DNA of 64,000 bases from Candidatus Methylomirabilota bacterium. Its GTDB lineage: Bacteria; Methylomirabilota; Methylomirabilia; Rokubacteriales; CSP1-6. Below the pieces are notes generated by a model. That model worked only from the letters and a program-made list of their open reading frames with translations. It searched no databases and was not told the DNA's origin. Below, in pieces: positions 2,082 to 62,577 of the stretch (the first letter of the stretch is position 1; every line of letters begins with the position of its first letter). Where the stretch lies: contig DASTFB010000132.1 in assembly GCA_035709005.1 (NCBI GenBank), positions 33,737 through 97,736 of the forward strand. Reading direction: 5' to 3'. Position numbers and translations under genes: made by a program.

Positions 2082-2151
2082 GGTTCACGCGGCAGCTTTG
2101 GGATCCATCCAGAAGAAGCCCAGATGAGGTCCTTGACCGCCAAGTTGACGA

Positions 2152-2388: not shown

Positions 2389-2474
2389 TGCCTCCCTCGT
2401 GGGTGTCAGGCCGGCTGTCGGCCTCTCGTAGTCAGTCGAACGAGCAGCGTGAGAATCGACAGCGGGGCCCGGGC

Positions 2475-8239: not shown

Positions 8240-9598
<1,359 letters not shown>

Positions 9599-9607
9599 TG
9601 TCGCTCG

Positions 9608-11836
9608 CTAGGCCTGGGTCTCGACCGCAGCCGACAGGCGCGCCACGGGAAGCTCGACCACGAAGCGGCTCCCCCGCGGGTGGTTGTCCTCCACCCAGAC
9701 GGCCCCGCCGTGCTCGGTGATGATCTCGTGGACGATGGGCAGCCCCAGGCCCATGCCGGTGGTCTTCGTCGAGAAGTACGGCAGGAACAGCTTGTCCTTG
9801 TCCTCGGGCTTGATCCCCGGACCGGAATCGCTCACGATGAGCTGGACGCGGCCTCCGTCGGGCGCCAGCGCGATCTCGATGTCCACGTCCCCTCCGCCGC
9901 CCACCGCCTCCACGGCATTGTCGACCAGATTGAGCAGGGCCCGCTTGATGTAGTCGGGGTCGAACTCCAGGAGGGGCAAGTCGTCGGGGTACCGGGTGCT
10001 GAACCGCAACGTGGGATGGGACTCGCGGTAGAGACTCGCCACGCTGTCCACCAGGGGGCGCAGGTCAGCGGGCCGCGGGGTGAGCACCGGCATCCGGGCG
10101 AATCGCGAGAACTCGTCCACGAGGCGGCGGAGACCGTTGACTTCCTGGATGATGATGCCGGTGCACTCGGCCACCAGCTCGTGGTCGCCGGCGTTACGGG
10201 TCAGACGCCGACGCAGGCGCTGGGCCGACAGTTGGATCGGCGTGAGCGGATTCTTGATCTCGTGGGCGATCCGCTGGGCCACTTCGCGCCAGGCGGCCAG
10301 CCGCTGCGCTTTGAGCAGCTCGGTGAGGTCGTCTACGACGAGCACGGCTCCGGCGTACTCGCCTTCGGGCCCGCGCAGTGCGGTGGCCGAGGCCAGCAGC
10401 GAGACGGTGGCGCCTTTGCGGCGCAGATGGAGCTCCTGATCGACCGCCCCCGCCCGAAGCCGGCGCACCCGCTGGACGAGGCCGATCACGTCGGCCAGGT
10501 CGGGACTGCCGAACACCTGCTCCACCGGCCGGCCCACCGCGGTCGCCCCCTGCAGCCCGAACATGGCCGCGGCCGCCCGGTTCAGGGTGGTGACGCAGCC
10601 CTGAGGATCCAGGGAGACGACGCCGGTGGTGACCGCCTCCATCACCGTCTCGATGTACCGTCGACGTTCCTCGAGCTCCGTGTGCTTGTCTTGCAGGTCC
10701 AGATACGCTTCTTCCAGCTGCCGCTTGGAGCGACCGAGATCTTCGGTCATGCGGTTGAACGAGTCCACGAGGACGCCCAGCTCGTCGTCGGCGCGCACCT
10801 GCACCTTGTAGCTCAGGTTGCCGGCCGCCACCTCCCGGGTGCCTTCGGCCAGCTCGGCGATGGGCCCGGTGATGCCGCGGGCCAGATAGAGCCCGAACCA
10901 GGTGAAGGAGAACACGATGATCAGGGTCAGCAGCATGAACAGCAGGATGTAGATGCCCTTGATGGGGTTCTTCACCAGCTTGAGCTGCTTGTACTCCAGA
11001 AAGGCCTGGGCGATCCCCCGGATCCGGTGTTCCAGTCGCTCGGCCACGTGGGTCCCCACCACGACCGTGCCGAGGATGCGGCGATCGGAGTCGCGGGCCA
11101 CCACCGGGGCGAAGGCCTCGATGAGATCGCCCGAGTAGACCTCGCGGACCGTGGTGACGTGTTGGCCGGCCAGCCCCAGGCGCAGTTGCCCTTCGTTGAT
11201 GTCACGGGTCGGCAGCTCGCCCAGGGCCGGGTCGTTGACGTGGGCCAGTTCCTGCCCTTTCGCGCTGAAGACGGTGATGGCGCTGAGCCCCAGCTGTTCC
11301 TGCTGCTCGACCAGGTAGGCGGCCAGCGCCTCGCGCCGGGCGTCCTCGAGCAGCGCGTCGCGCTCGACGACGCGGGCGATGTGCTGCCCGTGGCGCAGCG
11401 CGGCCGCCTGGAGGTTCTGGTAGTACGTCTGGGCCACCGACAGCGCCTGTTCCAACGGCTGCTCGACCTGCGGCTTGAACCAGCCTTCGATGGATTTGTT
11501 GATGAAGTTTGAGGCGATCGTGAAGATCAGGATGGCGGGCGCCAGGGCCAGCGACAGGAAGGCCAGGACGAGCTTCGTCTTGAAGCGTGACCCCAGGAGC
11601 TTTCGGCGACGCTCGAACCAGAGCTTGACGAGGTTCCGGAGCAGGAGCACCAGCAGGAGCAGGAAGACGATGAGGTTGAGGTTGAACAGCGCGAACACGA
11701 CAATGTTCGAGGCAAGCGGGACTTCGGGCACCCGCATCTCGAAGTTCAGGGCCGTGGCCACCACCAAGAAGGCCAGGGCCGCGGTGACGATCACGGCGTT
11801 GCGGCGGCGCCGGCTGGGTTCGGTCAGCAGGGGCAT
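9608..11836 (-). CDS. ntrY: Sensor histidine kinase NtrY-like (transmembrane, HAMP, PAS, HisKA, HATPase)
   Basis: 742 aa with N-terminal transmembrane helices, a H-box (IAHEIKNPLTPIQL) and a G-box (DSGPGI). It lies immediately upstream of ntrX. Confidence 0.85.
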   Translation of the reverse strand: MPLLTEPSRRRRNAVIVTAALAFLVVATALNFEMRVPEVPLASNIVVFALFNLNLIVFLLLLVLLLRNLVKLWFERRRKLLGSRFKTKLVLAFLSLALAPAILIFTIASNFINKSIEGWFKPQVEQPLEQALSVAQTYYQNLQAAALRHGQHIARVVERDALLEDARREALAAYLVEQQEQLGLSAITVFSAKGQELAHVNDPALGELPTRDINEGQLRLGLAGQHVTTVREVYSGDLIEAFAPVVARDSDRRILGTVVVGTHVAERLEHRIRGIAQAFLEYKQLKLVKNPIKGIYILLFMLLTLIIVFSFTWFGLYLARGITGPIAELAEGTREVAAGNLSYKVQVRADDELGVLVDSFNRMTEDLGRSKRQLEEAYLDLQDKHTELEERRRYIETVMEAVTTGVVSLDPQGCVTTLNRAAAAMFGLQGATAVGRPVEQVFGSPDLADVIGLVQRVRRLRAGAVDQELHLRRKGATVSLLASATALRGPEGEYAGAVLVVDDLTELLKAQRLAAWREVAQRIAHEIKNPLTPIQLSAQRLRRRLTRNAGDHELVAECTGIIIQEVNGLRRLVDEFSRFARMPVLTPRPADLRPLVDSVASLYRESHPTLRFSTRYPDDLPLLEFDPDYIKRALLNLVDNAVEAVGGGGDVDIEIALAPDGGRVQLIVSDSGPGIKPEDKDKLFLPYFSTKTTGMGLGLPIVHEIITEHGGAVWVEDNHPRGSRFVVELPVARLSAAVETQA

Positions 11837-12402
11837 CAGCGCACGCGCCGGACCGTCCGATAATCGGATTGCAGCACCGTCTCTTCGGCGGTGCCCGCCA
11901 TTCGCGCCACGAACGTGTTCTCGCCGTTGAGGGCGGCCTCGGCCCGGACCCGGACGTAGATGACCGCGTTGAGGTCGACGTCGGCGGCCGGGCTGAGCTT
12001 GGCGGCCCGCAGCTCCGAGATGACCCGCTGGGCGTCGCGCAGGTCACGTGTGGCATAGATCGGTCGCGTCTCGCCTTTGAGCGAGGCCACGCGGAACTCC
12101 TTGCTCACGACATTGTAGGTCAGGTTGCGCTCGATGACCCTGGTGGTGAGCAGGCGGTCGCGCCACCCGCGATTGAGCTGCCAGAGCTCGATGGTAAAGC
12201 GGAGGTGGCTAGGGATGCCGCTGTAGATCGGCTCGTCGAACGTCGGGGGCACGGCTCCCACTGCGACGACGTGGACGGTGAAATCGTGGTCGTTGAGATA
12301 GACCGCGAGGTCGGTCAGGCGGAGCTCGCCCCGGGCGGACACCGGGACGGCGAGCCACGCGCCGACGATGAACATCAGGAGTCCCGCACGCAGACCTGCC
12401 AT
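11836..12402 (-). CDS. DUF4390 domain protein (conserved partner of ntrYX)
   Basis: 188 aa with a signal peptide. Its stop overlaps the ntrY start. This architecture commonly precedes ntrY. Confidence 0.65.
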   Translation of the reverse strand: MAGLRAGLLMFIVGAWLAVPVSARGELRLTDLAVYLNDHDFTVHVVAVGAVPPTFDEPIYSGIPSHLRFTIELWQLNRGWRDRLLTTRVIERNLTYNVVSKEFRVASLKGETRPIYATRDLRDAQRVISELRAAKLSPAADVDLNAVIYVRVRAEAALNGENTFVARMAGTAEETVLQSDYRTVRRVR

Positions 12403-12416
12403 AAGGCCGACAGGAC

Positions 12417-12448
12417 ATTATAGCGTCGGGTCCCGAGCGCGACTCGGG
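12417..12448 (-). promoter_or_regulatory. Perfect TATAAT -10 box 14 nt upstream of the DUF4390-ntrY-ntrX start, preceded by the 17-nt palindrome CCCGAG-CGCGA-CTCGGG
   Basis: Seen in the sequence. The palindrome (12432..12448) directly abuts the lpxC stop. Confidence 0.35.
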
Positions 12449-13348
12449 TTAGATGGCGGCGGGGGCGGGCGCCAGGCCGCCGTGCTGAGCCGCCTCCCGG
12501 ACCGGCAGCGCAACGCCGGCCGGTCGGCGATCGAGGCCGAGGGCTCGTTGAATCGCGACGACGAGGTCGAAGTTCAGGGCGTGGCCGGCGTTGCGGGCGA
12601 TCACATAGCCCACGACGGGCCGCCCGAGCAGGGCCAGGTCGCCGATGAGGTCCAGAATCTTGTGCCGGACGAACTCGTCCCGATAACGCAGGCCGTTCAG
12701 GGCGCCACGCTTGCCCACGCCGATGGCGTTCTCCAGCGAGGCGCCCCGCGCCAGGCCGTTACGGCGCATCTCTCCCAGATCCTTGAGGAACCCGTAGGTC
12801 CGCGCCGGGGCGAACTCCTCGACGAACATCCGCTCGGTCGGGGCGCAGGTGATGGCCTGGACACCGATGGCCGGATGGTCGTTGTCCAGCGTGTAGCTGA
12901 TACGGAAGACGTCGGATGGAAGGATCTGGATCCACCGCCCGCCGCCGCCGACCCGGATCGGGTATGGAACGACGATGGGCCGCTTCGGTGCTGACTGCTC
13001 CACCCGGCCGGCGGACGCGAGGAGCGCCACGAAGGGCTTGGCGCTGCCGTCCCCGGCCGGGATCTCCGGCCCGTCCACCTCGATGAGCAGGTTGTCGAGC
13101 CCGAGGCCGGCGGCCGCCGCCATCAGGTGCTCGACGGTCTGGATCTTCGTGCCGTTGCGGCCGATCGTGGTCGCGTAATGGGAGTTCATCACGCTTTCGG
13201 GCGCTGCCGCGATGGCGTCGTCGTCGCCCTGGCGGAAGACGATGCCGGAGTTCGCCGGCACTGGAGACACCCTGATACGGGCCGGCTTGCCGGAGTGCAG
13301 GCCGACGCCCTCGAGCTCGACTGGTCGGCGGATCGTACGCTGGTGCAT
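12449..13348 (-). CDS. lpxC: UDP-3-O-acyl-N-acetylglucosamine deacetylase
   Basis: Matches the LpxC family (MHQRTIRRP..HSGKPARIRVSP..TTIGRNG..IQTVEHLMAA). I chose the ATG at 13348; the ORF track starts at a TTG at 13369. Confidence 0.85.
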   Translation of the reverse strand: MHQRTIRRPVELEGVGLHSGKPARIRVSPVPANSGIVFRQGDDDAIAAAPESVMNSHYATTIGRNGTKIQTVEHLMAAAAGLGLDNLLIEVDGPEIPAGDGSAKPFVALLASAGRVEQSAPKRPIVVPYPIRVGGGGRWIQILPSDVFRISYTLDNDHPAIGVQAITCAPTERMFVEEFAPARTYGFLKDLGEMRRNGLARGASLENAIGVGKRGALNGLRYRDEFVRHKILDLIGDLALLGRPVVGYVIARNAGHALNFDLVVAIQRALGLDRRPAGVALPVREAAQHGGLAPAPAAI

Positions 13349-13365
13349 AGCCGGGTGGAAGGTGA

Positions 13366-13380
13366 GCAACCTGGGTGCCA
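13366..13380 (-). promoter_or_regulatory. Consensus sigma-54 promoter (TGGCAC-N5-TTGC) immediately upstream of the lpxC ATG
   Basis: The minus strand reads cTGGCACccaggTTGCt. It overlaps the alternative TTG start given in the ORF track. Confidence 0.35.
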
Positions 13381-13494
13381 GACGGCACGGGAGATCTAAC
13401 GCTATGTTTTTCCAGACTAAATATAGTGACTACGGAGTCCGGGATCGCTGTCGCGTCGCAGCCGTGCAACATGCCGGAGGGGGGGCTGTCTCAT

Positions 13495-14259
13495 TTAGGA
13501 AACATGCTCGCCACCGAGATCTCCGAACCTGAACTGCAGTACCGCGATAACGGAGAGGCCGGCAGTTTCCGTGCGCAGGGTCCGTGGCCCGAGAGAGGCG
13601 AGCGACCACCCGCGCACGCTGGCGCGCCCCACCTCCTCGAGGCTCAGGCCACCCTCTGGTCCGACGAGCACGACCGCGGTGGCCGGCACGCGGCCGAGGT
13701 CCTCGCAGAGGCTGGCCAGCGACGGCGCTTGACCTTCCCACAGGCACAGGCGCAGGTCCGCCGAAGTGACGTCGGAATCCAACCACTCGTCCAGCGAGCG
13801 AGGCACCTCGACCTGGGGGATGAAGGCCCGGCCGCTCTGCTTGCTCGCCTCCTTGGCCACGCGTTGCCATCGACGCGCTCGATCGCGCCAGCGGCCGGGG
13901 TCGGCCCGAACGACGGTGCGCTCGGTGAGGGCGGGCATCACGCGCCGGACCCCCAGCTCCGTCGCGGCCCGGACGATGGCTTCCATCTTGTCGCCCTTGG
14001 GCACGCCCTGCACCAGGCTGATGGCGAGCGGGGACTCCGAGGCGCTCGGCGCCACGCGGAGAATCATGCCGGTCGCGGCCTCGCCCAACTGCTCGAGCCG
14101 GACGGTGTAGTCGTGGCCGCGCCCATCGACCGCGACGACCAGGTCTCCGGGGGTCAGGCGCAGCACGGCGCTCATGTGACGGCTTTCCGCTTGGTCGAAG
14201 GCGACGCGGTCGCCGCTGATCTGCTCCGGCGTCACCGTGAAGCGTCGCGGGCCGCTCAC
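13495..14259 (-). CDS. rsmE: 16S rRNA (uracil1498-N3)-methyltransferase
   Basis: 254 aa, RsmE/DUF558 family (RFTVTPEQ...LVGPEGGLS). Confidence 0.8.
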   Translation of the reverse strand: MSGPRRFTVTPEQISGDRVAFDQAESRHMSAVLRLTPGDLVVAVDGRGHDYTVRLEQLGEAATGMILRVAPSASESPLAISLVQGVPKGDKMEAIVRAATELGVRRVMPALTERTVVRADPGRWRDRARRWQRVAKEASKQSGRAFIPQVEVPRSLDEWLDSDVTSADLRLCLWEGQAPSLASLCEDLGRVPATAVVLVGPEGGLSLEEVGRASVRGWSLASLGPRTLRTETAGLSVIAVLQFRFGDLGGEHVS

Positions 14260-15131
14260 GCTACCCGTCTCAGCACGAGGGTGCTCCAGCCGTCCACGGA
14301 GCGAACGGTGACCGGAACGAAGCCGTGCGCCGTGATCGTGGCGCTGACGGCCGGCGCTTCCGGATCCAGGATGCCGCCGAGCACCAGGGCGCCAGCGGGC
14401 GCGACATACCGAGCGTAGTGGGGGCCCAGACGCAGGTGAGCGGGCGCCAGCAGATTGGCGAGCACGAGGCCGGCGGCCGCCGAGGTGAGACTTCCCGCGT
14501 CGCTCTGCAAGGGCCGCACGCGCTCCGTCACGCCGTTGCGGCGGGCGTTGGCCGCGGCGCAGGCGAGCGCGTCGGGATCATCATCCACGGCCAGCACGGT
14601 CAAGACGCCGAGCCGGACCGCGGCGATGGCCAGGATCCCCGAGCCCGTCCCCAGGTCGATCGCTGTCCGCGGCGATGCCCGCTCCATGATGTCCTCCAGA
14701 CTTTCCAGGCAGCCCTGTGTGCTGGCGTGGTGACCAGTGCCGAAAGCCCGGCCGGGGTCGATCACGATCGGGATGCGCTCGCCAGCCGCGCACGCGTCCC
14801 AGGGCGGCGCGATGAGCAGCCGGCGGCCCACCGACAGCGGGCGGAAGTGAGCGCGCCAGGCCTGGGACCAATCGACGTCGGCCACGCGGCTCAGGGTCGA
14901 GTCCTGCGGCGCGGGAAGTCCGAGGGCTCGTAACCCGGCCAGGTAGTTCGCCAGGCGGGTCCCGATGCCGGCTCCCGCGCCGGGAGGGAAGAAGGCCCGC
15001 AGCCGCAGCTCGCGTCCCGGCGCCTCCTCGCCCACGACGCCCAGGGCGCCGAGCTCCCAGAGAAAGTTGGTCAGCGCCTCCTCGACCGCCTCGGGTGCGC
15101 TGATGGCCAGCTCCCAGTACGCGCTGCTCAT
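14256..15131 (-). CDS. prmA: Ribosomal protein L11 methyltransferase
   Basis: 291 aa, PrmA family with a SAM-binding motif (DLGTGSGILAIAA). Confidence 0.85.
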   Translation of the reverse strand: MSSAYWELAISAPEAVEEALTNFLWELGALGVVGEEAPGRELRLRAFFPPGAGAGIGTRLANYLAGLRALGLPAPQDSTLSRVADVDWSQAWRAHFRPLSVGRRLLIAPPWDACAAGERIPIVIDPGRAFGTGHHASTQGCLESLEDIMERASPRTAIDLGTGSGILAIAAVRLGVLTVLAVDDDPDALACAAANARRNGVTERVRPLQSDAGSLTSAAAGLVLANLLAPAHLRLGPHYARYVAPAGALVLGGILDPEAPAVSATITAHGFVPVTVRSVDGWSTLVLRRVA

Positions 15132-15154
15132 TCGGGGGCAGGCCGACGCCCGCG

Positions 15155-16243
15155 TCAGCCGATCAGCTTCTTCATGCGCTCGAGGAACGCGCCCAGCAGC
15201 GGGCCGCTGTGGCCCCTGGCGGCGGCCTCGAAGGCCTGCAGCGCCTCGCGCTGCGCCGCGTTCAGCTTCTGGGGGACTTCGAGCAGGAGGCGGTAGCAGG
15301 CATCACCGTGACCGCGCTCGCGCAGGCGCGGCATGCCGCGGCCTCGCAGCCTCAAGATCTGATTCGGCTGAGTGCCCGCCGGAATCTTCAGCGACGCGGT
15401 GCCCGAGATCACCGGCACCGTGACTTCCGCGCCGAACACGAGCTGGGGATAGGTCACCGGCAGCGTGCAGTAGAGATCCGCGCCGTCGCGGGTGAAGAGC
15501 TCGTGCTCCCGGACTCGCACCACCACGTACAGGTCGCCCGCGGGCCCGCCGCCCAGTCCGCTCGCCCCCTCTCCGGGCATTCTCAGCTGCATGCCATCGT
15601 CGATCCCGGGCGGGATCTTGACCGAGAGCAGCCGCTCGGCCCGCTGGCGGCCCTCGCCGCGACAGGCCCGGCACGGATCGCGGTTGAGCTCGCCTTCCCC
15701 GTGACACTTGGGGCAGGTGCGCGCCACCGTGAGGAAACCCTGGCTGATTCGTATCTCGCCGCGCCCGTGGCACGTGTCACAGGTCGTGCGGCGGCCCCCC
15801 GGCTCGACACCGCTGCCGTGGCAGGCCTCGCAGCGGTCCAGGCGGGGCACCTGGATCTTCGTCTCGGTGCCGCTGGCCGCCTCCTCCAGCGCAATGGCCA
15901 GCTCGTACTGCAGGTCTTCGCCGCGGGCGGCCCGCCCGCGGCGGCCCCGGCCGGAACCGGCGAAGAAGCTCTCGAAGATGTCATCGAACAGCGTGCCGAA
16001 ACCCTGGTCGAACCCGGTCGTGACGCCGACGGTCCCGAAGCGATCGTACTGGGCCCGCTTGTCGGGATCGGACAGGATGGCGTAGGCTTCGTTGACCTCC
16101 TTGAAGCGCTCCTCGGACTGCTTGTCGCCCGGATTCCGGTCGGGGTGGTACTGCAGGGCGAGCTGCCGATAGGCTTTCTTGAGGTCGACGTCGCTTGCGC
16201 TGCGGGGGACCCCCAGCACCTCGTACAAATCGCGGGGCGGCAT
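15155..16243 (-). CDS. dnaJ: Molecular chaperone DnaJ
   Basis: J domain ([15 protein letters not shown]), a Gly/Phe region, and four CxxCxGxG zinc-finger repeats. Confidence 0.9.
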
Positions 16244-26507: not shown

Positions 26508-26544
26508 GTGACTCCTCCAACCTTCGAATGCCGCGAGCGGAGGT

Positions 26545-26559
26545 GCAATGCCAGTGCCA
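26545..26559 (-). promoter_or_regulatory. Consensus sigma-54 promoter (TGGCAC-N5-TTGC) upstream of the DUF1508 gene
   Basis: The minus strand reads cTGGCACtggcaTTGCa. The predicted start site is about 27 nt upstream of the GTG with its SD. Confidence 0.4.
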
Positions 26560-45383: not shown

Positions 45384-45974
45384 GCCGCGCGGCCACCCAG
45401 GCGGCCACCGCGGACCCGGCGACGGCGAGGGCCGCGGCGGCGAACGGAATCTGGTAATTTCCGGTCGCGTCGAACAGCCAGCCGCCCAGGAAAGGCCCAA
45501 TCGCGCCGCCCAGGCCGCCACCCGCCTGGACCACCCCGAGGATCGCGCCCAGATGTGGCCCCGAGAAGAAGTCGGCGGGAATCGCCGAGAGCTGCGCGAT
45601 GCGCATGCCGAAGCCGAATCCGGAGGCCGTGCAGAGCAGGAGAAGCGGTAGATCGTGAGGGCCTCGCAACGCGCCCTGACCCGCAAGGGCCAGAGCCAGA
45701 CCGAGAACCAGTCCGCTGATGGTCACGACCGTTCGCGCTCCCCGGCGATCGGAGAGCCAGCGGCGACGGACGCCCAGACCACGAAGCACAGCCAGCTCAG
45801 CGAGTAGCCGAGCGCGGTCGGGCCGCGTCCCCACACGAACACTTCGAGGATCGCGAATAAAAGAGTGCGAACGTGGATCGCGGAGCCCACGCGAGAACGG
45901 TAGCGCAACTCACCCGGATCGCCGCTGTGTGGTAGTGATGGCGGCATCGTCGAGCCACAGGACCATGGCGGCAT
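45361..45974 (-). pseudogene. MFS transporter remnant (C-terminal half only, oxalate/formate-antiporter-like), frameshifted near 45800
   Basis: The 157-aa ORF matches TM7-12 of the intact MFS at 62619..63902 (WLSDRRGARTVVTISGLVL...GGLGGAIGPFLGGWLFD). The N-terminal six-helix half is absent; that space is occupied by alkA. Confidence 0.5.
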
Positions 45975-47379
45975 AGGCCCGCCAGGGCCGCCACCGCTCC
46001 GCCCGACGCTGGAGCAGAGCCGGCGAAGGTCTGGCCAGGTGCCGTCGCATGGCGCGGAGAAGACCGTGATCGCCCACGGGGAAGGCGTCGGGCTCGCGCA
46101 GCGCGCGCATCGCGATGTACTCCGCGGTCCAATCGCCGATGCCGGGCAAGGTCACCAGTTCGGCCACCGTGTGCTCCACCGAGCCGGTCGTCCGAAGCAG
46201 CGTTGGATCTCTCATCACCGCAGCCGCCAGCGACGAGATGGCCGCGGCCCGCGCGCGGGGGACTCCGATGCTCGAGAGATCAGCATGGGCCAGCGTCTTG
46301 GCGTCCGGAAACAGGACCCGCAGGTCACCACCCGAGCTCGGCGTGCCGAGTCGCTCGCCGAAGGTCGCCGCCAGCCGTCCGGCCAGCGTCGATGCCGCGG
46401 CGACGCTCACCTGCTGGCCGAGCGTGGCCCTCACGGCGAGCTCGAACGCGTCCCACGCTCCCGGAACCCGCAGTCCCGGGCGTGCGGCGAGGCGGGACGC
46501 CAGCGCGGGATCACGGCCGAGGTGCGTGGCGATCGGCTCCGGATCCGCGTCGAGGTCGAAGAGGTGGCGCAAGCGTGCCGCAATGGCGGCCAGCGCGGGC
46601 AACCGATCGACGGTGATCGTGGCCAGGAGAAACGGCTCGGCGGCCGACCGGATCTCCACGATCCCCTGCGTGCCGTCCAGGCTGATCGTCCGGCGGTAGA
46701 CCCCGTTCTCGACCGACTCGACACCCGGAATCGCCCGCCGTGCGAGAAATGCCAATACCCCGGCCCAGTCGTACGGAGGCCGGTATGGTAGGCGCAGCGT
46801 GAGCCGAGACGCCGTCGATGCGGCCGCCCGCCGCAGGTCACGCGGGGGGCGGCCGAATGTCCGCTGCATCACCGCGTTGAAGCGGCGGACACTGCCGAAC
46901 CCCGCTCCGAGCGCGACCTGCGTCAGGGGCAGGCCGGTATCGGTAATGAGTTGCTTGGCGAGAAAGACGCGCTGCACTTGCAGGACCGCAACGGGGGAGG
47001 CTCCGACGTGCCGTCGGAACAGACGCCGCAAGTGCCGGCTCCCGACGCCCAGCCGCGAGGCGAGTGCTTCGAGGTTCGTGGCCTCGGGCCCGTCCTCGGC
47101 GAGGAGGCGGAGCGCACGGTCGACCGTCGCCACCGTCCCGCTCCACGCCGGAACTCCCGGGCTGATCTCGGGCCGACAACGGAGGCAGGGCCTGAACCCG
47201 GCAGAGTATGCCGCCGCCGCCGTCGGAAAGAAGACACAGTTTTCGAGCCTGGGCGTCGGGGCCGGACAAATCGGCCGGCAGAAGATTCCCGTGGACAGTA
47301 CCCCGGTCAGAAAGCGCCCGTCGAAGCCTCGATCCCGGGCCTGGACAGCGCGATAGCACGCCTCGTGGTCAAGATCCAT
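45910..47379 (-). CDS. alkA: AdaA-AlkA fusion: Ada zinc-binding domain, AraC-type HTH, and DNA-3-methyladenine glycosylase II
   Basis: 489 aa with an N-terminal Cys motif (FCRPICPA..CLRCRPE), an AraC HTH and a C-terminal HhH-GPD glycosylase. Confidence 0.85.
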   Translation of the reverse strand: MDLDHEACYRAVQARDRGFDGRFLTGVLSTGIFCRPICPAPTPRLENCVFFPTAAAAYSAGFRPCLRCRPEISPGVPAWSGTVATVDRALRLLAEDGPEATNLEALASRLGVGSRHLRRLFRRHVGASPVAVLQVQRVFLAKQLITDTGLPLTQVALGAGFGSVRRFNAVMQRTFGRPPRDLRRAAASTASRLTLRLPYRPPYDWAGVLAFLARRAIPGVESVENGVYRRTISLDGTQGIVEIRSAAEPFLLATITVDRLPALAAIAARLRHLFDLDADPEPIATHLGRDPALASRLAARPGLRVPGAWDAFELAVRATLGQQVSVAAASTLAGRLAATFGERLGTPSSGGDLRVLFPDAKTLAHADLSSIGVPRARAAAISSLAAAVMRDPTLLRTTGSVEHTVAELVTLPGIGDWTAEYIAMRALREPDAFPVGDHGLLRAMRRHLARPSPALLQRRAERWRPWRAYAAMVLWLDDAAITTTQRRSG

Positions 47380-47466
47380 GCCGCTCGATTCCGATGATAG
47401 ACGCCGGCCGGACGAGACGTCTCGCCGTTTTCGGACACGATTGGCGACGTCCCGAGACGCTCCGAG

Positions 47467-56888: not shown

Positions 56889-57740
56889 GTGCCCTGGATC
56901 GATCCGAGGTTCCCGAAGACAGCTACACCGAGCGACCTGGTCGGCCGCGTGCTGGGCCTCAACCCCGGGCTGATGACCGGGCCGGGCACCAACACGTACC
57001 TGGTGGGCCGGCGCGATCCCATCCTCATCGATACCGGCAGCGGCGTCCCCGAGTACGTGCCCCTGCTCGAGGGCTACCTGCGCGAGCGGGGCTGGCGACA
57101 GCCCGACCGGGTGGTGCTGACCCACCGGCACCCGGACCATCTCGGCGGCGTCGGCGCCTTGCGCGAGCGCTTCCCCGGCCTGCCGGTCGCAAAGATGCGC
57201 CACCGGGATGCCGTCCTCCCCGAGCCCGTCGACGACCTCCGTGATGGCGCCGTCATCGAGACCGACGGCGTGACGCTGGTCGCCGTCCACACCCCCGGCC
57301 ACGCCTCCGACCATCTCTGCTACTTCCTGGTCGAGGAGCGGGCGGTCTTCACGGGGGACGTGGTCCTGGGGGGCTCGACGACGGTGATCCCGCCGGGCGA
57401 CGGCGACCTGCTCGATTATCTGGCCTCGCTGCGCCGGCTCCAGGCCCTGGGGGTCGGGCGCATCTACCCGGCCCACGGACCGGTCATCGAGGATGGCCCG
57501 GGTCGCCTGGCCGAGTACATCGAGCACCGGCTCCTGCGCGAGCGCCAGATCCTGGAAGCGCTCGGCGACGGGCCGGCCACGATTCCCGCGCTGGTGAAGC
57601 GGATCTACGTCGACGTGCCGGTGGCGCTCCACGGGGCCGCCGCCATGTCCGTAGAGGCCCACCTGCGCAAGCTGGCCCGCGAGGGTCGCGCGCGCGAGCA
57701 CCGGGCCCCCGACGCGCCGTCCCGCTGGGAATCGATGTGA
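56889..57740 (+). CDS. MBL-fold metallo-hydrolase
   Basis: HxHxDH motif (THRHPDHLGG). GTG start assumed. Confidence 0.7.
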   Translation: MPWIDPRFPKTATPSDLVGRVLGLNPGLMTGPGTNTYLVGRRDPILIDTGSGVPEYVPLLEGYLRERGWRQPDRVVLTHRHPDHLGGVGALRERFPGLPVAKMRHRDAVLPEPVDDLRDGAVIETDGVTLVAVHTPGHASDHLCYFLVEERAVFTGDVVLGGSTTVIPPGDGDLLDYLASLRRLQALGVGRIYPAHGPVIEDGPGRLAEYIEHRLLRERQILEALGDGPATIPALVKRIYVDVPVALHGAAAMSVEAHLRKLAREGRAREHRAPDAPSRWESM

Positions 57741-57879
57741 ACAGGACACGGGCACCCGGGCTTGATCTCGGCTCATTTCACCGCTCGCCTCGCGCCTCGG
57801 CGGCACTCGGCTCGCACTGCGGCCCGTGCCCCGCGCAATCGCGGTCGGCGCTTCTTCTTGGACCCGATCAGGAGGTGAG

Positions 57880-58698
57880 TCAGGCGCTGAGCACGCAGAC
57901 CGCGTCGGGCGTCAGCACCTGGGCGGCGATGGATTCGACACAAAAGAGGTGCAAGGCGTCGACGTCGTGCCAGCGGTAGCCGACGCTCAGGTCGCCGCCG
58001 ACGGTGATGACGAAATCGTCGCCCCGGCCCGAGAAGACCGCCCCGCCGCGGAGCACCGAGGAGCGGTGCACGGCCTGGATCCGCTCCTTGACCTGTTCGC
58101 TGGCCGGGTAACCACACCCGCTGGCCTGAGCCTGCCAGAACTCGTTGAAGCGTCCGGGCTCGAGCACCGCGATATACGGACCCGCGATGCCGCTGCGATC
58201 GAGGGTGTCGGCCGCCCCGATGAGATCGGCCACGGCCCGGCCCGGCTCGTTCCAGTCGCCCAGCGTCAGGCGGGGCGACTTGCCGGACGTGAGAAACCCG
58301 CCACCGTTGTTGTCGCCGTAGAAGACGATCTGGTCTTCGGTCTCGGCCACGTCGCGAGCGGCGGCCTCGGCCGCCGCCGTCTCCAGGACGGGCGCTCCGC
58401 GCTCGAAGGTCTCCACCTCCGACCACGAGATGGAAAAATCGGCCCGGATTTCGGTAAGCAGCGCCACGTCCGGGTGAAATGCCCGCGCGCTCCCCCGGGG
58501 CCGCAGCCCGGGAGCCGGTCGCAGCGTGCCCAGGCTGGCGGCGACATAGTCCCAGCCCTTGGGGCCGTCGAAGTCGGCGACTCTTCGCCCGGCCAGAACG
58601 TGGATCGCGGCTTTACGGACCGCGGCGTCGACCTCCTCCCAGACCCGCTCGGAAACGGGTGCCCCTTTGCGGCGCTGCAGAAAGTCCGCCATCGTCAT
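57880..58698 (-). CDS. Family-1 encapsulin nanocompartment shell protein
   Basis: MTMADFLQRRKGAPVSERVWEEVDAAVRKAAIHVLAGRRVADFDGPKGWDY...GGDFVITVGGDLSVGY. HK97-fold encapsulin family. Its ATG overlaps the TGA of the EncFtn gene. Confidence 0.85.
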   Translation of the reverse strand: MTMADFLQRRKGAPVSERVWEEVDAAVRKAAIHVLAGRRVADFDGPKGWDYVAASLGTLRPAPGLRPRGSARAFHPDVALLTEIRADFSISWSEVETFERGAPVLETAAAEAAARDVAETEDQIVFYGDNNGGGFLTSGKSPRLTLGDWNEPGRAVADLIGAADTLDRSGIAGPYIAVLEPGRFNEFWQAQASGCGYPASEQVKERIQAVHRSSVLRGGAVFSGRGDDFVITVGGDLSVGYRWHDVDALHLFCVESIAAQVLTPDAVCVLSA

Positions 58699-59072
58699 CG
58701 CTTTCTCAACGACCCGATCCCCGTGATCCGAGGCGGCGCCGGAGGCTCGGTGCCGTCGCCGGCTTCCTCGATCGCCAGGACGGGTCGGTCGGTGAACAGG
58801 TACATGCGCAGGTAACGGTCGAAGCCCTCGTCCTGGCGACGTAGCCACTCGAGGACCATCGCGGCGTGTTCCTTTTCCTCATCGCGGTTGTGCGCCAGGA
58901 TCTCGCGAAGCGCGGCGTCGCCGGTGGCATCGACTCGCTGCTGGTACCAGTCGATTGCCTCCAGTTCCTCCATCAAGCTGACGATAGCCCGATGCAGGTC
59001 ACGGGTGCGTGGGCTCAGCGAGTCGGCCGGTTCGTGGAAGCCTTCCGACGCCACGGGCCGTCCGAGTTGCAA
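58695..59072 (-). CDS. Encapsulated ferritin-like cargo protein (EncFtn) with a C-terminal targeting peptide
   Basis: HRAIVSLMEELEAIDWYQQRVDA...AHNRDEEKEHAAMVLEWLRR matches EncFtn. The C-terminus GIGSLRKR is the cargo-loading peptide. Confidence 0.8.
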   Translation of the reverse strand: MQLGRPVASEGFHEPADSLSPRTRDLHRAIVSLMEELEAIDWYQQRVDATGDAALREILAHNRDEEKEHAAMVLEWLRRQDEGFDRYLRMYLFTDRPVLAIEEAGDGTEPPAPPRITGIGSLRKR

Positions 59073-59101
59073 ACGCGAGGCCGGTGACTACGCTGCCGCC
59101 G

Positions 59102-59839
59102 CTATCGACGGGCGGCGCTGATGAGGGCGCTGAAGAGGCTACGGGCGGCCGGGTCGTGATCCACGAGGTCTTCCGGATGCCACTGGACACCAACGACGAA
59201 CCCGCCGCCGTCCTCTCCCTCGACGGCTTCGATGACGCCATCCGGGGCCCAGGCCACGTCCCGCAAACCGCGCCCCAGGCGATCGATGGCCTGGTGGTGA
59301 AAGCTGTTGACCTTGAGGTCACCGGCGCCCAGGATCGCTCCTATCTGCGTCCCCTCCACCATCACCTTGACCTCGTGGGTCGCCTGCTGCCGCGGCTCAC
59401 GCTGGGCATGGTCGATCGGGCTCGTCGGGTAGGCGTCGGGAACGTGCTGGTGCAGGGACCCTCCCAGCGCGACGTTGAGGACCTGCGCGCCGCGGCAGAT
59501 GGCCAGGACGGGGAGCCCTTGGTGCAGTGCCCGTCGGGTCGCCTCGATCTCAAGCTCGTCGCGCGCTTGCGACACCGCCTCGGCCTTGGGGTGCCTTCGC
59601 TGGCCGAACCATTCGGGGTCGATGTCCCCGCCGCCGGTGAGGACGAGGCCATCCAGCCGGTCCCACAGCGCCTGGAGGGCGGGGGGATCCAGGTACGGCG
59701 GCAGGAGCACGGGCACGCCACCCGCCCGTTGCACGGCCAGGACGTACGCGCGGTTCAGGTGAGCCCGTGGGGGCGTGGACCCGGGATCGTCGTCCGGCGT
59801 GACGGACGTGGTCAGGGCGATCAACGGCGCGCGAGACAT
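59102..59839 (-). CDS. Gamma-glutamyl-GABA hydrolase-like class-I glutamine amidotransferase (peptidase C26)
   Basis: 245 aa with a catalytic Cys and His pattern (LAICRGAQ.., FHHQAID). Confidence 0.8.
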   Translation of the reverse strand: MSRAPLIALTTSVTPDDDPGSTPPRAHLNRAYVLAVQRAGGVPVLLPPYLDPPALQALWDRLDGLVLTGGGDIDPEWFGQRRHPKAEAVSQARDELEIEATRRALHQGLPVLAICRGAQVLNVALGGSLHQHVPDAYPTSPIDHAQREPRQQATHEVKVMVEGTQIGAILGAGDLKVNSFHHQAIDRLGRGLRDVAWAPDGVIEAVEGEDGGGFVVGVQWHPEDLVDHDPAARSLFSALISAARR

Positions 59840-59908
59840 GACGCCAGCCTAGCACGACCCGACAATCGCCCCGTCGCGGCCCACGCGCCCGATGTATGAT
59901 AGCGGGCA

Positions 59909-61651
59909 ATGTCCCTCGACTCCGCCTCGGCCCAGCGCTCGGCCCCGCTGCACAGGCCCACGCACACCGTGCAGGTGATCGGAACCCGTTGGGCCGTGGC
60001 CGGCGGTCACCCGCTGGCCGTGGAAGCCGGCGCCCGGATCCTGGGCGCCGGTGGCAACGCGATCGACGCGGGTGTGGCCGCGGGTCTCTGCCTGGGCGTG
60101 GTTCACCCCGACATGGTCTCGGTGGCCGGCGTGGCGCCGATTCTCGTGCACCTGGCGGGCAGCGGGCAGACCTGGCAGGTCGCTGGCGTGGGTCCGTATC
60201 CGCGCGCCTCCACGGTGGAGTACTTCCGCACCCGACACGGCGGGCAGATCCCGCCCGGCCTGGGCCGCACGGTCGTGCCGGCGGCGCCCGACGCCTGGTG
60301 CACCGCGCTGGCCCGCTGGGGCACGATGAGCTTCGCCGAGGTCGCGGCGCCCGCGACCGAGCACGCCGAGCGGGGCTTCCCGGTCTCCGAGTTCTCCGCC
60401 TACCAGATGGCGGCGAATGCCGAAAAGTATCGCCGGTGGCCGACCTCGACGGCCCTCTACTTGAAGAACGGGCGTGCGTATCGGGCCGGCGAGGTCCTGA
60501 CCCAGCGAGAGCTGGGCCAGACGCTGCATCGGATGGCGGCGGCCGAGCGCCGCGCGGGAGGCAGCCGGGCCGACGGCATCGGCGCCGCGCGCGACGAGTT
60601 CTATCGCGGCGAGACGGCCCGGCTGATCGCCGAGTTCCACCGCCGCGAGGATGGGCCCCTGACGCTGGCTGACCTCGAGACCTTCGCCGTGGAGGTGGGC
60701 CCGGCGCTCTTGGGGACGTTCGGGACGTGGCAGATGGCGACCTGCGGCTACTGGTGCCAGGGCCCGGTGCTGCTGCACATGCTCAACATGCTCGAGGGCC
60801 TGAATCTGGAATCCCTGGGTCACAACTCGCCGGCCTACCTGCACCGAATCGTGGAGACGATCAAGATCGCCTTCGCCGACCGGAACGCCTACTTCACCGA
60901 TCCCAAGTTCGCCGACGTGCCGGAGTTCCTCCTCAGCAAGAGCTACGCGGCACAGCGGCGAGAGCTGATCGGCGAGCGAGCCTGGGCCGAGATGCCTCCG
61001 GCCGGTCCGCCGGCGCGTGCCCAGGCCGTGACCGGGCAGGCAGTGATCGCCACCGGTGTGGCCGAAGGCCTCGACACGAGCTACGTGGCCGTCGTCGATG
61101 CCGAGGGCAACGGCTTCTCCGCCACCCCGAGCGACCCGAATGCGGACTCACCGGTCGTGGCCGGCGTGGGCTGCGTCGTGTCGCCGCGTGGTTCGCAGGG
61201 CTGGCTGGATCCCGCTCACCCCGGGGTCGTGGCACCGGGCAAGCGGCCGCGGCTCACCCCGGCGCCGGCCATGGTCTTCAACGGGGGGCGGCTGGCGATG
61301 CCCTTCGGCACGCCGGGTGGTGACGTGCAGCAGCAGGCCATGCTGCAGGTCTTCCTCAACATCGCCGTGTTCGGCATGGCGCCCCAGCAGGCGGTGGAAG
61401 CGCCCCGGGTGGCCTCGCGAAGCTTCCCCGACTCCTTCTGGCCCCACGTGATGGCGCCGGGCAAGGTCGAGGTCGAGGGCCGGATTCCTCAGGACACCTG
61501 CGCGGCGTTGGCCAGGCTCGGTCACGACGTGTCGATGTGGCCGGACTGGGAATGGCGAGCCGGAGCGGTGTGCGCCGTGAGGGTTGACGGCGAAGGCGTC
61601 CGCTGGGCCGCGGCCGATCCGCGTCGAGGCGCCCACGCCATCGCGCGGTAG
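59909..61651 (+). CDS. ggt: Gamma-glutamyltransferase
   Basis: 580 aa, with the GGT family autoprocessing Thr region (TSYVAVVD). Confidence 0.9.
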   Translation: MSLDSASAQRSAPLHRPTHTVQVIGTRWAVAGGHPLAVEAGARILGAGGNAIDAGVAAGLCLGVVHPDMVSVAGVAPILVHLAGSGQTWQVAGVGPYPRASTVEYFRTRHGGQIPPGLGRTVVPAAPDAWCTALARWGTMSFAEVAAPATEHAERGFPVSEFSAYQMAANAEKYRRWPTSTALYLKNGRAYRAGEVLTQRELGQTLHRMAAAERRAGGSRADGIGAARDEFYRGETARLIAEFHRREDGPLTLADLETFAVEVGPALLGTFGTWQMATCGYWCQGPVLLHMLNMLEGLNLESLGHNSPAYLHRIVETIKIAFADRNAYFTDPKFADVPEFLLSKSYAAQRRELIGERAWAEMPPAGPPARAQAVTGQAVIATGVAEGLDTSYVAVVDAEGNGFSATPSDPNADSPVVAGVGCVVSPRGSQGWLDPAHPGVVAPGKRPRLTPAPAMVFNGGRLAMPFGTPGGDVQQQAMLQVFLNIAVFGMAPQQAVEAPRVASRSFPDSFWPHVMAPGKVEVEGRIPQDTCAALARLGHDVSMWPDWEWRAGAVCAVRVDGEGVRWAAADPRRGAHAIAR

Positions 61652-61680: not shown

Positions 61681-62322
61681 TTACTCTCGGTCCTCCTCGA
61701 CCGTCTGCGTCCGGGCGGGCTCGGCGTTCTTCAAGGCCGCCAGAGGACGCCGATCGGCGCCGCCGACACCTTCGGCGACGATGATCGACTTCGCGCGGAA
61801 CGCCAATCCGGGATCGCGGCGCCAGCCGCGCACGATATCCCTCAACTGGAGCAGCGGCCCGCGCTCCGCGCTCTTCGGCGGGACCAGCTCCAGCTGATCC
61901 AGGATCGCGACCTCGAGATCGGCGAGCCCGCCTGCCCGATCGAAGGCCAGAAAGGCGCGGCCGTCGGCGAGCTGGATGAGGGAGACGCCCCGCAACGGGG
62001 TGAACACCTCGGGTTGAACCACGATGAGGGCCCGGCGGCCGGGCAGGTGCACGAGTTCGGCTAACGGCGCCGGGCCCGGGGGCCGTCGCCGCTGCCCGCC
62101 ATCGCTGAGGATCGGCTCGACCAGCCGCACGATCGCCCAGCCCAGATCCCGGTGAATCGTCCGGAGGGCATCCAGCACCTCCTGGGGCAGCGTCAGGGCG
62201 ACCACTTGTGAAGGACGCCCGAACTTGGGCGGGCGGCCCCGGGCGGCTCGACGCGGTGACCCCGCATCCACGTCCGGCGCGGCCCTCCTCTTCGGTGAGG
62301 CCCTCTTCGGGCGACGTGCCAT
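61681..62322 (-). CDS. Hypothetical protein with a basic N-terminus containing AT-hook-like RGRP and GRP motifs
   Basis: From the internal Met MARRPKRASPKRRAAPDVDAGSPRRAARGRPPKFGRPSQ... It has good GC3 bias and a GGAGGGAG RBS. Confidence 0.5.
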   Translation of the reverse strand: MARRPKRASPKRRAAPDVDAGSPRRAARGRPPKFGRPSQVVALTLPQEVLDALRTIHRDLGWAIVRLVEPILSDGGQRRRPPGPAPLAELVHLPGRRALIVVQPEVFTPLRGVSLIQLADGRAFLAFDRAGGLADLEVAILDQLELVPPKSAERGPLLQLRDIVRGWRRDPGLAFRAKSIIVAEGVGGADRRPLAALKNAEPARTQTVEEDRE

Positions 62323-62356
62323 CTCCCTCCCCGGTCGGTAGGCGCGTAGAATTAAC

Positions 62357-62385
62357 TTGAAAAAATAGAAAACATGAGTATTAAT
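62357..62385 (+). promoter_or_regulatory. Sigma-70-like promoter TTGAAA-N17-ATTAAT inside a 22% GC patch
   Basis: Seen directly in the sequence. The patch 62346..62405 is extremely AT-rich relative to the roughly 70% GC surroundings. Confidence 0.4.
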
Positions 62386-62415
62386 CCTAAAAAAATTATT
62401 CCTGACCGCCGGGTG

Positions 62416-62577
62416 ATGATCATGGCAGAGTCCGGCCCCCCCATCCAGATGCATTCAGCGCGGCCGATGACGCTCTGGGCCTTCCTCTGGGACCGCCGGT
62501 GGTTCTGGCTCGGCCCCCCACTCGTGGTCCTGGGGTCGCTGCTGCTGATGATGCTGGTCGGTCGACCGTGGCCCTAG
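62416..62577 (+). CDS. Putative small membrane protein (about 53 aa)
   Basis: MIMAESGPP...WFWLGPPLVVLGSLLLMMLVGRPWP. GC3 is around 90%. It lies downstream of the AT-rich promoter; the ORF-track ATG at 62374 lies within the promoter spacer. Confidence 0.35.
   Translation: MIMAESGPPIQMHSARPMTLWAFLWDRRWFWLGPPLVVLGSLLLMMLVGRPWP

Follow-up and report, generated by a model that had tools for sequence, protein, structure and literature searches.

A Family 1 encapsulin and EncFtn gene pair that behaves as an autonomous cassette beside gamma-glutamyl enzyme genes in a Methylomirabilota sub-lineage

Results

Organization of the locus

We analyzed a 64,000-nt stretch of a Candidatus Methylomirabilota contig (the window), in which an encapsulin shell gene and the gene for its EncFtn cargo lie together on the minus strand, between a gene for a C26-family hydrolase and a gene for an MBL-fold hydrolase. 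The genes and features considered here are as follows.

8240-9598: NtrX-like sigma-54 activator (Sigma54_activat response regulator)
56889-57740, plus strand: MBL-fold hydrolase with a winged-helix tail (PF00753, E 4e-29; PF17778, E 1.8e-14)
57880-58698, minus strand: Family 1 encapsulin shell gene, 272 aa, ATG at 58698
58695-58698, minus strand: ATGA overlap of the EncFtn stop (TGA, 58695-58697) and the shell start (ATG, 58696-58698)
58695-59054, minus strand: EncFtn cargo gene, 119 aa from GTG 59054
58698-58721, minus strand: C-terminal targeting peptide GIGSLRKR of EncFtn (C-terminus ...RITGIGSLRKR)
58866-58970, minus strand: ferroxidase-center and presumed entry-site codons of EncFtn (codons verified)
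59068-59088, minus strand: promoter-like motif GTCACC-GGCCTCGCGTTTGCA, GG-N10-GC with sigma-54 -24/-12 geometry
59102-59839, minus strand: C26/class-I glutamine amidotransferase-like hydrolase, 245 aa (PF07722, E 9e-66)
59909-61651, plus strand: GGT-family Ntn hydrolase, 580 aa (PF01019, E 4.9e-104), divergent from the C26 gene

The C26 protein retained its catalytic motifs CRG and HPE (Cys115 and His221-Pro-Glu223), and the GGT-family protein, which is identical to NCBI HET9492470.1 (Methylomirabilota bacterium), carried a conserved DTSY at residue 389 in which Thr is presumably the nucleophile. The initial annotation had named these genes gamma-glutamyl hydrolase and ggt. The C26 family assignment and the divergent position of the second gene were borne out, but the specific names were not: the C26 protein scored 107.6 against the PuuD (gamma-glutamyl-GABA hydrolase) equivalog NF008471 (cut-off 266) and the GGT-family protein 256 bits against TIGR00066 (cut-off 357.85), and because both scores lie under the equivalog cut-offs, the labels PuuD and canonical GGT are too specific. 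Both names are therefore family-level labels only (PF07722 and PF01019). On the other side of the pair, the MBL gene, whose product is called at 283-285 aa in relatives, is convergent with the shell gene and bounds the insertion site there.

The wider setting was cellular rather than prophage-like, the neighbors being metabolic and housekeeping genes, and a scan of ~45 window ORFs turned up no phage or iron genes. An Rfam scan of the whole window returned no RNA family. The 145-nt region following the shell gene folded with a stability like that of shuffled sequences (z -0.25), and no terminator is claimed there. A scan of positions 57600-60100 for sigma-70 promoters and intrinsic terminators found nothing, so that neither co-transcription nor termination can be argued from it.

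Shell and cargo proteins

The shell protein matched PF04454 with an E value of 1.3e-55 and 188.8 bits (cut-off 24.3) and the encap_f1 model NF041155 with 188.6 bits (cut-off 100) over residues 9-270, and these scores, above the curated cut-offs, place it in Family 1 by sequence. Among solved structures, the shell protein of Haliangium ochraceum, 7odw (E 6.8e-38), and that of T. maritima, 3dkt (E 2.6e-34), matched over their full length. An AF2 model of the shell protein (pLDDT 75, pTM 0.73) superimposed on solved encapsulins with TM scores of 0.65-0.71, the highest being with 7odw, and the best 50 PDB matches listed for the model were all natural or engineered encapsulins. The modeled chain adopted a compact encapsulin-type HK97 fold with N-terminal helices at residues 3-11 and 17-30 and no extended N-arm, in keeping with Family 1 encapsulins, which bear an N-terminal helix where most other HK97-fold proteins have an extended N-arm (PMC8346489). 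Model confidence was low at residues 35-56, which are taken to be the E-loop region. The T number is not readable from sequence; given that the encapsulins of H. ochraceum and T. maritima, its best sequence matches, are similar in length, it is a reasonable inference that the particle is most likely T=1 and ~24 nm in size.

The adjacent small protein scored above the cut-offs of both EncFtn family models, PF22277 (E 1.3e-41, 140.7 bits, cut-off 27) and TIGR04535 (145 bits, cut-off 125). Two starts can be read for its gene, GTG 59054 (119 aa) and TTG 59072 (125 aa), and the former is almost certainly the one used, as judged from alignment and gene calls: it falls precisely on the position at which relatives have their ATG (MASEGFHE...), gene callers on identical contigs give a protein of 119 aa, and TTG 59072 falls within a conserved non-coding motif. 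With GTG 59054 as the start, the true gap between the C26 and EncFtn genes is 47 nt; the C26 gene had been placed upstream on the same strand, correctly, with a gap of 29 nt, which has to be replaced by this value.

Mapped by gap-free alignment to 5da5/33bf (offset 4 in the 125-aa numbering), residues E29, E30, E32, W36, Y37, E60 and H63 of the 119-aa protein correspond, in the same order, to E31, E32, E34, W38, Y39, E62 and H65 of R. rubrum EncFtn, of which we take E31, E34 and W38 to be the entry site. All were invariant in 10 relatives. The di-iron ligands E30, E60 and H63 (ExxH motif), together with Y37, were thus intact in the small protein, the residue roles being those described for E32, E62, H65 and Y39 of R. 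rubrum (PMC11202242).

The protein ends in GIGSLRKR, in agreement with the core of the targeting-peptide consensus for Family 1, SDGSLGIGSLKRS (PMC8346489); G-S-L-R was invariant in 10 relatives, and the Gly/Ala/Pro linker preceding it was variable. At the junction of the two genes the minus strand reads ...AAGCGATGACGATG..., and the identical 4-nt overlap was called in six related loci (L001, L004, L007, L009, L012 and L101). The shell gene is thereby adjoined by a cargo gene with a C-terminal targeting peptide, and the central claims of the initial annotation, namely a complete Family 1 encapsulin-EncFtn pair, the targeting peptide and ATGA coupling, were confirmed by the family scores, the structural matches, the consensus core and the overlap itself, as was the presence of the di-iron site. 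A search of all window ORFs for targeting-peptide-like C-termini revealed no second cargo besides EncFtn; one 70-residue open frame (stop to stop) with such a tail was taken as spurious. The C26 protein, which ends in ...LFSALISAARR without a GSL motif, has no targeting peptide and was ruled out as encapsulin cargo on that ground; with its adjacency to the pair confined to one lineage, it qualifies neither as cargo nor as operon partner.

Relation to characterized encapsulins

Among solved systems, both proteins matched the H. ochraceum encapsulin/EncFtn system best (PDB 7odw, 7oe2, 7oeu and 5n5f), with 32-34% identity between the shells and 54% identity over 102 residues between the EncFtn proteins (E 8.3e-37). 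The system predicted in the window shares with it a two-gene logic in which the cargo carries a localization sequence; the two differ in the linker sequence before the targeting peptide and in the host, which is a member of the Myxococcota in the one case and of the Methylomirabilota in the other. R. rubrum EncFtn (Rru_A0973; PDB 5da5 and variant structures) aligned without gaps over 95 residues, at 63% identity, and has E32, E62, H65, Y39, E31, E34 and W38 in common with the window protein, whereas the length and composition of the C-terminal linker and the genomic context differ. The T. maritima encapsulin (maritimacin; PDB 3dkt, 7kq5 and 7mu1), which has an Flp cargo, is 264-265 aa long compared with 272 aa here, with TM scores of 0.65-0.67 to the model and ~30% identity. 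M. xanthus EncA belongs to the same shell family, and EncB and EncC are EncFtn-like cargos, but the matches were weak (EncC, E 3.8e-07; EncB, E 7.8e-04; EncA, E ~6e-21), and the M. xanthus system (EncA, EncB, EncC and EncD) has a 287-aa shell, T=3 architecture and several cargos, in contrast to the single cargo found here.

Comparison of related loci

The encapsulin pair was present at the corresponding site in the window and in L001-3, L004/5, L007/8, L009, L018 and L101/2, and missing from L021, L024, L027, L028, L031 and L032, in which GGT, C26 and MBL follow one another without an insert; in L022, L026 and L083 the empty site comprised C26-MBL only, the contig ending before GGT. The distance between C26 and MBL in the empty-site relatives was 1-290 nt. 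Encapsulin relatives at 56-65% identity had different neighbors altogether (L020 at 64%, L012-L017 at 56-59%). In neighbor-joining (NJ) trees of the GGT and MBL proteins, built without support values, the loci carrying the pair grouped in one subclade, with a few empty-site loci (L021 and L026/L083) nested among the occupied ones. A scan of genome contigs with the shell protein, made for synteny, yielded just two hits, both in Myxococcota and distant (28% identity), and was uninformative.

The EncFtn-shell pair thus behaves as an autonomous cassette of ~1.2 kb, situated between C26 and MBL in one Methylomirabilota sub-lineage, and the arrangement GGT<>C26><MBL is probably the older backbone. 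The gamma-glutamyl neighborhood of the cassette therefore appears accidental, and the pair probably adjoins gamma-glutamyl enzyme genes only through insertion there. The proposal of the initial annotation that iron storage is tied to gamma-glutamyl metabolism is not supported, in view of the empty-site backbones, the relatives in other contexts and the C26 protein having no targeting peptide, and it is further weakened by a conserved promoter-like motif lying between the C26 and EncFtn genes.

As a separate observation, EncFtn-Enc pairs were flanked by different MBL-fold families in two clades. A link between the pair and MBL-fold proteins was set aside as a probable coincidence, since the two clades differ in both MBL family and orientation, and the MBL type found in the window also occurs without the cassette.

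Upstream motif

Within the spacer upstream of EncFtn, the minus strand at 59068-59082 reads GGCCTCGCGTTTGCA, in which GG and GC are spaced 10 nt apart and TTGCW occupies the -12 position; the motif ends 13 nt ahead of the GTG start. GGC-N7-TTGCA was found 5' of EncFtn in seven loci (the window, L101, L004, L007, L009, L018 and L020), the last of which has a different genomic context without C26. A count over 556 kb of pooled sequence gave 11 occurrences of GGC-N7-TTGCA, 7 of them these EncFtn-upstream sites; the seven instances share a common ancestry and hence are not independent. The full -24 box TGGCAC was absent, all seven loci reading CGGC(C/G)Y and so departing from the consensus T and A. 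Two canonical TGGCAC-N5-TTGCW sites occur elsewhere in the window, and these, together with the NtrX-like activator, point to putative use of sigma-54 by the organism.

Taking sigma-54 transcription to start ~11-12 nt past the GC, the end of the motif 13 nt before the start codon suggests a near-leaderless transcript in the window. The Shine-Dalgarno region of other relatives is missing from both the window and L101. TTGCA was ruled out as a sigma-70 -35 box, as no locus showed a -10 box at 16-18 nt on inspection by eye, and the same kind of inspection of the 47-nt spacer detected no Fur or IdeR operator. A literature search returned no paper joining encapsulins with Methylomirabilota, and a full-text search none containing both encapsulins and sigma-54 or RpoN.

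Discussion

We consider it probable, with good confidence, that the locus encodes a classical Family 1 encapsulin iron-mineralizing nanocompartment, carried on an autonomous cassette with its own upstream motif. Assembly, cargo loading, ferroxidase activity and T number are all predicted by homology. By analogy with the solved systems, the 119-aa EncFtn would form ferroxidase-active decamers with di-iron centers at the dimer interfaces, and its G-I-G-S-L-R peptide, borne on a flexible Gly/Pro-rich linker, would dock to the inner face of the HK97-fold shell during self-assembly of what would most likely be 60 subunits. Fe(II) would enter through the shell pores and be oxidized by EncFtn, and the mineral would be retained within the shell. 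Translation of cargo and shell would be coupled through the ATGA overlap. Transcription of the cassette from its sigma-54-geometry motif would yield a near-leaderless mRNA in this genome, and read-through from C26 may also occur, given that the gap is short (47 nt) and holds no terminator.

The same short, terminator-free gap on a common strand is what a functional three-gene operon of C26, EncFtn and shell would show, in which the turnover of gamma-glutamyl compounds (by hydrolysis of glutathione or gamma-glutamyl amines, for instance) is coupled to iron storage or oxidative-stress defense. The order C26-EncFtn-Enc is indeed kept in six distinct relatives with shell identity down to 66%, and with no Shine-Dalgarno region in the window and L101, expression could rely on upstream transcription. 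The loci that keep this order, however, are all collinear over their available flanks (several kb to 20 kb), which indicates shared ancestry; C26 abuts MBL in related contigs devoid of encapsulin genes, the divergent C26/GGT pairing recurs in ~20 distinct loci with or without the cassette, and encapsulin relatives in other contexts have neither C26 nor GGT. The C26 protein is not tagged for encapsulation, and the terms 'glutamyl' and 'amidotransferase' do not appear in a large survey of Family 1 operon neighborhoods (PMC8346489). We therefore regard such an operon as improbable. Far more remote is the reading of the shell gene as a remnant HK97-type prophage capsid next to an unrelated ferritin-like gene. 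Encapsulins and phage capsids do share the HK97 fold and can be confused in sequence searches (PMC8346489), but the shell protein passes the curated Family 1 model, each of the best 50 structures listed as matches to its model is an encapsulin, natural or engineered, its modeled N-terminal helices are a Family 1 trait (PMC8346489), it is translationally coupled to a cargo bearing a targeting peptide, and no terminase, portal, protease or integrase was present among the window ORFs scanned.

With respect to regulation, we tentatively propose, as something short of probable, that the EncFtn-encapsulin of this sub-lineage is a self-contained presence/absence cassette expressed from a sigma-54-type promoter, with a near-leaderless mRNA in this genome. 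If this is true, nanocompartment synthesis would answer to an enhancer-binding protein signal and not to an iron repressor of the Fur/IdeR type. It is also conceivable, at less than even chances, that GGC-N7-TTGCA is bound by an unknown regulator, as its operator, or by another sigma factor, and that the cassette is expressed mainly by read-through from a leaderless C26 promoter. The -24 half deviates from TGGCAC, an additional conserved GTC lies 6 nt upstream, beyond the sigma-54 consensus, and a sigma-54 start in the window would leave a leader of ~3 nt before GTG, a poor codon for leaderless initiation. Against this stand the fixed GG-N10-GC, perfect TTGCA and variable middle, which form a sigma-54 signature; nor did any locus, inspected by eye, show a -10 box at sigma-70 spacing (the scan covered the window only). 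The motif also moves with the cassette to L020, where there is no C26, and the ATG of L101, 12 nt past the motif and without a Shine-Dalgarno sequence, fits a leaderless start.

The pair is an ordinary instance of a well-known system that is already annotated in NCBI: it is recognized by PGAP models, and the neighboring genes match HET9492469/70. With it, a well-understood system gains a further uncharacterized EncFtn encapsulin, this one from Methylomirabilota (Rokubacteria), an uncultured phylum. The useful outcome is a negative one, in that adjacency to gamma-glutamyl enzymes should not be taken as a functional link. A minor lead is offered by the conserved sigma-54-like element and the apparent leaderless transcripts, which could guide work on the regulation of encapsulin expression, a poorly known field.

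Gene organization and identity of the encapsulin pair

Reading of the ORFs showed the initial annotation of the locus to be accurate as to its four genes, the ATGA overlap between the EncFtn stop codon and the ATG of the shell gene, and the tail of the cargo protein (EncFtn C-terminus ...PPRITGIGSLRKR):

57880-58698, minus strand: Family 1 encapsulin shell gene (Enc), 272 aa
58695-59054, minus strand: EncFtn cargo gene, start GTG 59054, 119 aa
59102-59839, minus strand: C26 gene (class-I glutamine amidotransferase-like hydrolase), 245 aa
59909-61651, plus strand: GGT-family gene (Ntn hydrolase), 580 aa, divergent from C26

The C26-EncFtn gap had been given as 29 nt, a value that presupposes a start at TTG 59072. 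GTG 59054 aligns with the start ATG of relatives (MASEGFHE...), gene callers predict a 119-aa EncFtn in contigs encoding an identical shell protein, and TTG 59072 falls within a conserved non-coding motif (GTCnnC-GGC(C/G)-N6-TTGCA); therefore, the EncFtn gene was set at 58695-59054 and the gap at 47 nt. The EncFtn start codon is GTG in the window and ATG in all relatives.

The shell protein scored 188.8 bits against PF04454 and 188.6 bits against NCBIfam NF041155 ("family 1 encapsulin nanocompartment shell protein"; cut-off 100), and aligned end to end with Haliangium ochraceum 7odw (E 6.8e-38) and Thermotoga maritima 3dkt (E 2.6e-34). An AlphaFold2 model with 31 homologues as input had a pLDDT of 75 and a pTM of 0.73, residues 35-56 being the low-confidence region, and the best 50 listed fold matches in the PDB were natural or engineered encapsulins (TM-score up to 0.71).

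EncFtn scored 140.7 bits against PF22277 (EncFtn-like) and 145 bits against TIGR04535 (cut-off 125), with aligned-core identities of 54% to H. ochraceum EncFtn and 63% to Rhodospirillum rubrum EncFtn. Because the R. rubrum alignment was free of gaps, residues could be transferred directly (119-aa numbering, counted from GTG 59054): Glu31, Glu34 and Trp38, which we take to be the entry site, correspond to E29, E32 and W36 of the window protein. Glu32, Glu62, His65 and Tyr39, whose functional roles are described in a structural review (PMC11202242), correspond to E30, E60, H63 and Y37. All seven residues were found in the window EncFtn and were invariant across ten relatives, and the di-iron site, for whose absence the alignment was checked, was present. 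Alignment with relatives placed the targeting tail G-[IV]-G-S-L-R behind a variable Gly/Ala/Pro linker, in agreement with the core of the Family 1 consensus SDGSLGIGSLKRS of Andreas and Giessen (PMC8346489). No other credible targeting peptide was found at the C-termini of window ORFs, that of C26 included.

In every feature testable in silico, the predicted pair matches a classical Flp/EncFtn Family 1 encapsulin system, and it belongs to a well-known kind that standard annotation models already recognise. Among characterised systems, those of H. ochraceum, R. rubrum and T. maritima come closest; for the window pair we infer assembly, T number, cargo loading and ferroxidase activity.

Genomic context of the cassette

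The gamma-glutamyl neighbourhood was put to a decisive test from the C26 side: metagenome contigs were scanned with an alignment of C26 homologues, and all five window proteins were placed in each fetched locus by tblastn. The order GGT<>C26-EncFtn-Enc><MBL (<> divergent, >< convergent; MBL, MBL-fold hydrolase gene) was retained in the related loci L004, L007, L009, L018 and L101 with shell identities of 66-86%, and since these loci are collinear with the window across the available flanks (several kb to 20 kb), the conserved order within the lineage is evidence of common descent rather than of selection for linkage. EncFtn and Enc were absent from empty relatives, in which GGT and MBL were 70-79% and 72-78% identical to those of the window, respectively; by tblastn, these sites were arranged as follows:

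L021, L024, L027, L028, L031, L032: GGT(-) C26(+) MBL(-), nothing between
L022, L026, L083: MBL directly after C26, the contig stopping short of GGT

At the empty sites the C26 and MBL stop codons lay 1-290 nt apart, and no traces of the cassette were found in the interval. Encapsulin relatives also occurred in other contexts, with neither C26 nor GGT nearby: in L020 (64% identity) the relative lies between the genes for an amidohydrolase and a CoA-transferase, and in a large clade of 56-59% identity (L012-L017) a divergent Rieske gene stands on one side and a co-directional Lactamase_B_3 gene on the other. The family scores and the di-iron site bore out the encapsulin identification in the initial annotation, and the empty sites and other contexts lent no support to its proposed link to gamma-glutamyl metabolism. 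Judged by gene order, C26 evidently goes with GGT, and the encapsulin pair is evidently an independent cassette lying at the C26-MBL junction by chance.

The names of the C26 and GGT genes themselves are loose. The C26 protein carries Cys115 and His221-Pro-Glu triad motifs and scored 107.6 bits against the PuuD equivalog model, below the cut-off of 266; the GGT-family protein scored 256 bits against TIGR00066, below the cut-off of 357.85. The latter is identical to NCBI HET9492470.1, "gamma-glutamyltransferase [Methylomirabilota bacterium]", and HET9492469.1 is in the C26 protein cluster.

In neighbour-joining trees of GGT and MBL, calculated without support values, all occupied loci fell in one subclade with a few empty loci nested among them; the history suggested for the cassette is a single gain followed by losses. 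In L004 (81% relative), an insert of ~5 kb with HigB toxin, Peptidase_M78-like and Beta_protein genes is present between the shell and MBL genes (11391-15419), and this insert shows the junction to be an insertion hot-spot.

The MBL-fold gene flanking EncFtn-Enc belongs to a different family in each of two clades. In the window clade it is a convergent Lactamase_B plus winged-helix gene after the pair (window 56889-57740), and in the 56-59% clade it is a Lactamase_B_3 gene after the operon and co-directional with it (L012 8937-9983, L014 8859-9911, L016 7711-8694). This is probably a coincidence, because the window-type MBL gene occurs without the cassette. The small Rieske [2Fe-2S] gene of the 56-59% clade, absent from the window, is always divergent from EncFtn (L012 7198-7503, L014 7161-7475, L016 5914-6231); by analogy with the ferredoxins of IMEF systems, its product could serve as the electron-transfer partner when iron is released.

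Upstream element and putative leaderless starts

The spacer 5' of EncFtn is poorly conserved apart from one element:

59068-59088, minus strand: GTCnnC-GGC(C/G)-N6-TTGCA, also in L101, L004, L007, L009 and L018

The element was also found in L020, where the cassette has another genomic context. A count over both strands of 556 kb of pooled sequence gave 11 occurrences of GGC-N7-TTGCA in total, of which seven were EncFtn-upstream sites and an eighth was one of the window's canonical sigma-54 sites. In its GG-N10-GC spacing and its TTGCA, the element has the -24/-12 geometry of sigma-54 promoters, its -24 half (CGGCCY) being weaker than the consensus TGGCAC. The organism evidently uses sigma-54, since the window has genes for an NtrY/NtrX-like pair, with a Sigma54_activat domain, and contains canonical sites:

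8240-9598, minus strand: NtrX-like sigma-54-dependent response regulator, Sigma54_activat, GAFTGA motif
9608-11836, minus strand: NtrY-like histidine kinase
26544-26558 and 13365-13379, both minus strand: canonical sigma-54-type sites TGGCAC-N5-TTGCW (TTGCA/T), intergenic

One canonical site lies between CtaG-like and UDP-glucose dehydrogenase genes, and the other ends 16 nt 5' of the lpxC ATG, without a Shine-Dalgarno sequence. We give the EncFtn element a little less than an even chance of being a sigma-54 promoter. Read-through from C26 into EncFtn is possible, because a consensus scan found neither a sigma-70 promoter nor an intrinsic terminator. A literature search returned no paper on encapsulins jointly with sigma-54 or RpoN.

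From the end of the element to the EncFtn start there are 24-75 nt in most relatives, with a Shine-Dalgarno sequence in between, 13 nt to the GTG in the window and 12 nt to the ATG in L101. These last two lack a good Shine-Dalgarno sequence; the other relatives have a strong GGGAGGAAGG or GGAAGGA. The whole C26-EncFtn spacer measures 47 nt in the window (59055-59101), 70 nt in L101 and 74-358 nt in other relatives (compared: L004 9563-9644, L007 9550-9623, L009 1839-2196). A transcript from the element in the window or in L101 would be nearly leaderless.

The GGT/C26 divergent spacers (window 59840-59908, L004 8750-8822, L007 8762-8830, L009 1040-1110) were also compared, and -10-like boxes were identified:

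59846-59854, minus strand: TGcTAGGCT, 6 nt 5' of the C26 ATG
59895-59900, plus strand: TATGAT, 8 nt 5' of the GGT ATG

Both boxes are conserved in four relatives, 6-10 nt before the start codons, an arrangement that suggests leaderless C26 and GGT mRNAs; such starts seem to be the norm at this locus and are perhaps common in the lineage. The one mildly novel lead is that a presence/absence cassette has a conserved promoter arrangement that is sigma-54-like and near-leaderless.

Other features of the window

The other scanned ORFs were those of an ordinary chromosome (hrcA-grpE-dnaJ, lepA, lepB, cytochrome oxidase, lpxC, a Liv-type ABC transporter and acyl-CoA dehydrogenases). No ferritin, Bfr, Dps or Fur gene was found among the scanned window ORFs, which leave out ~2082-3634 and 45384-47466, where GC3-based gene picking gave no confident ORF. 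Long ORFs do exist in these two stretches, e.g. 45910-47379 (minus strand, 489 aa). An Rfam search of the window returned zero families. A 257-aa ORF at 61681-62454 (minus strand), without a Pfam or NCBIfam match, has a GC3 of 0.79, lower than that of the adjacent genes, and is rich in Arg and Pro in its N-terminal region.
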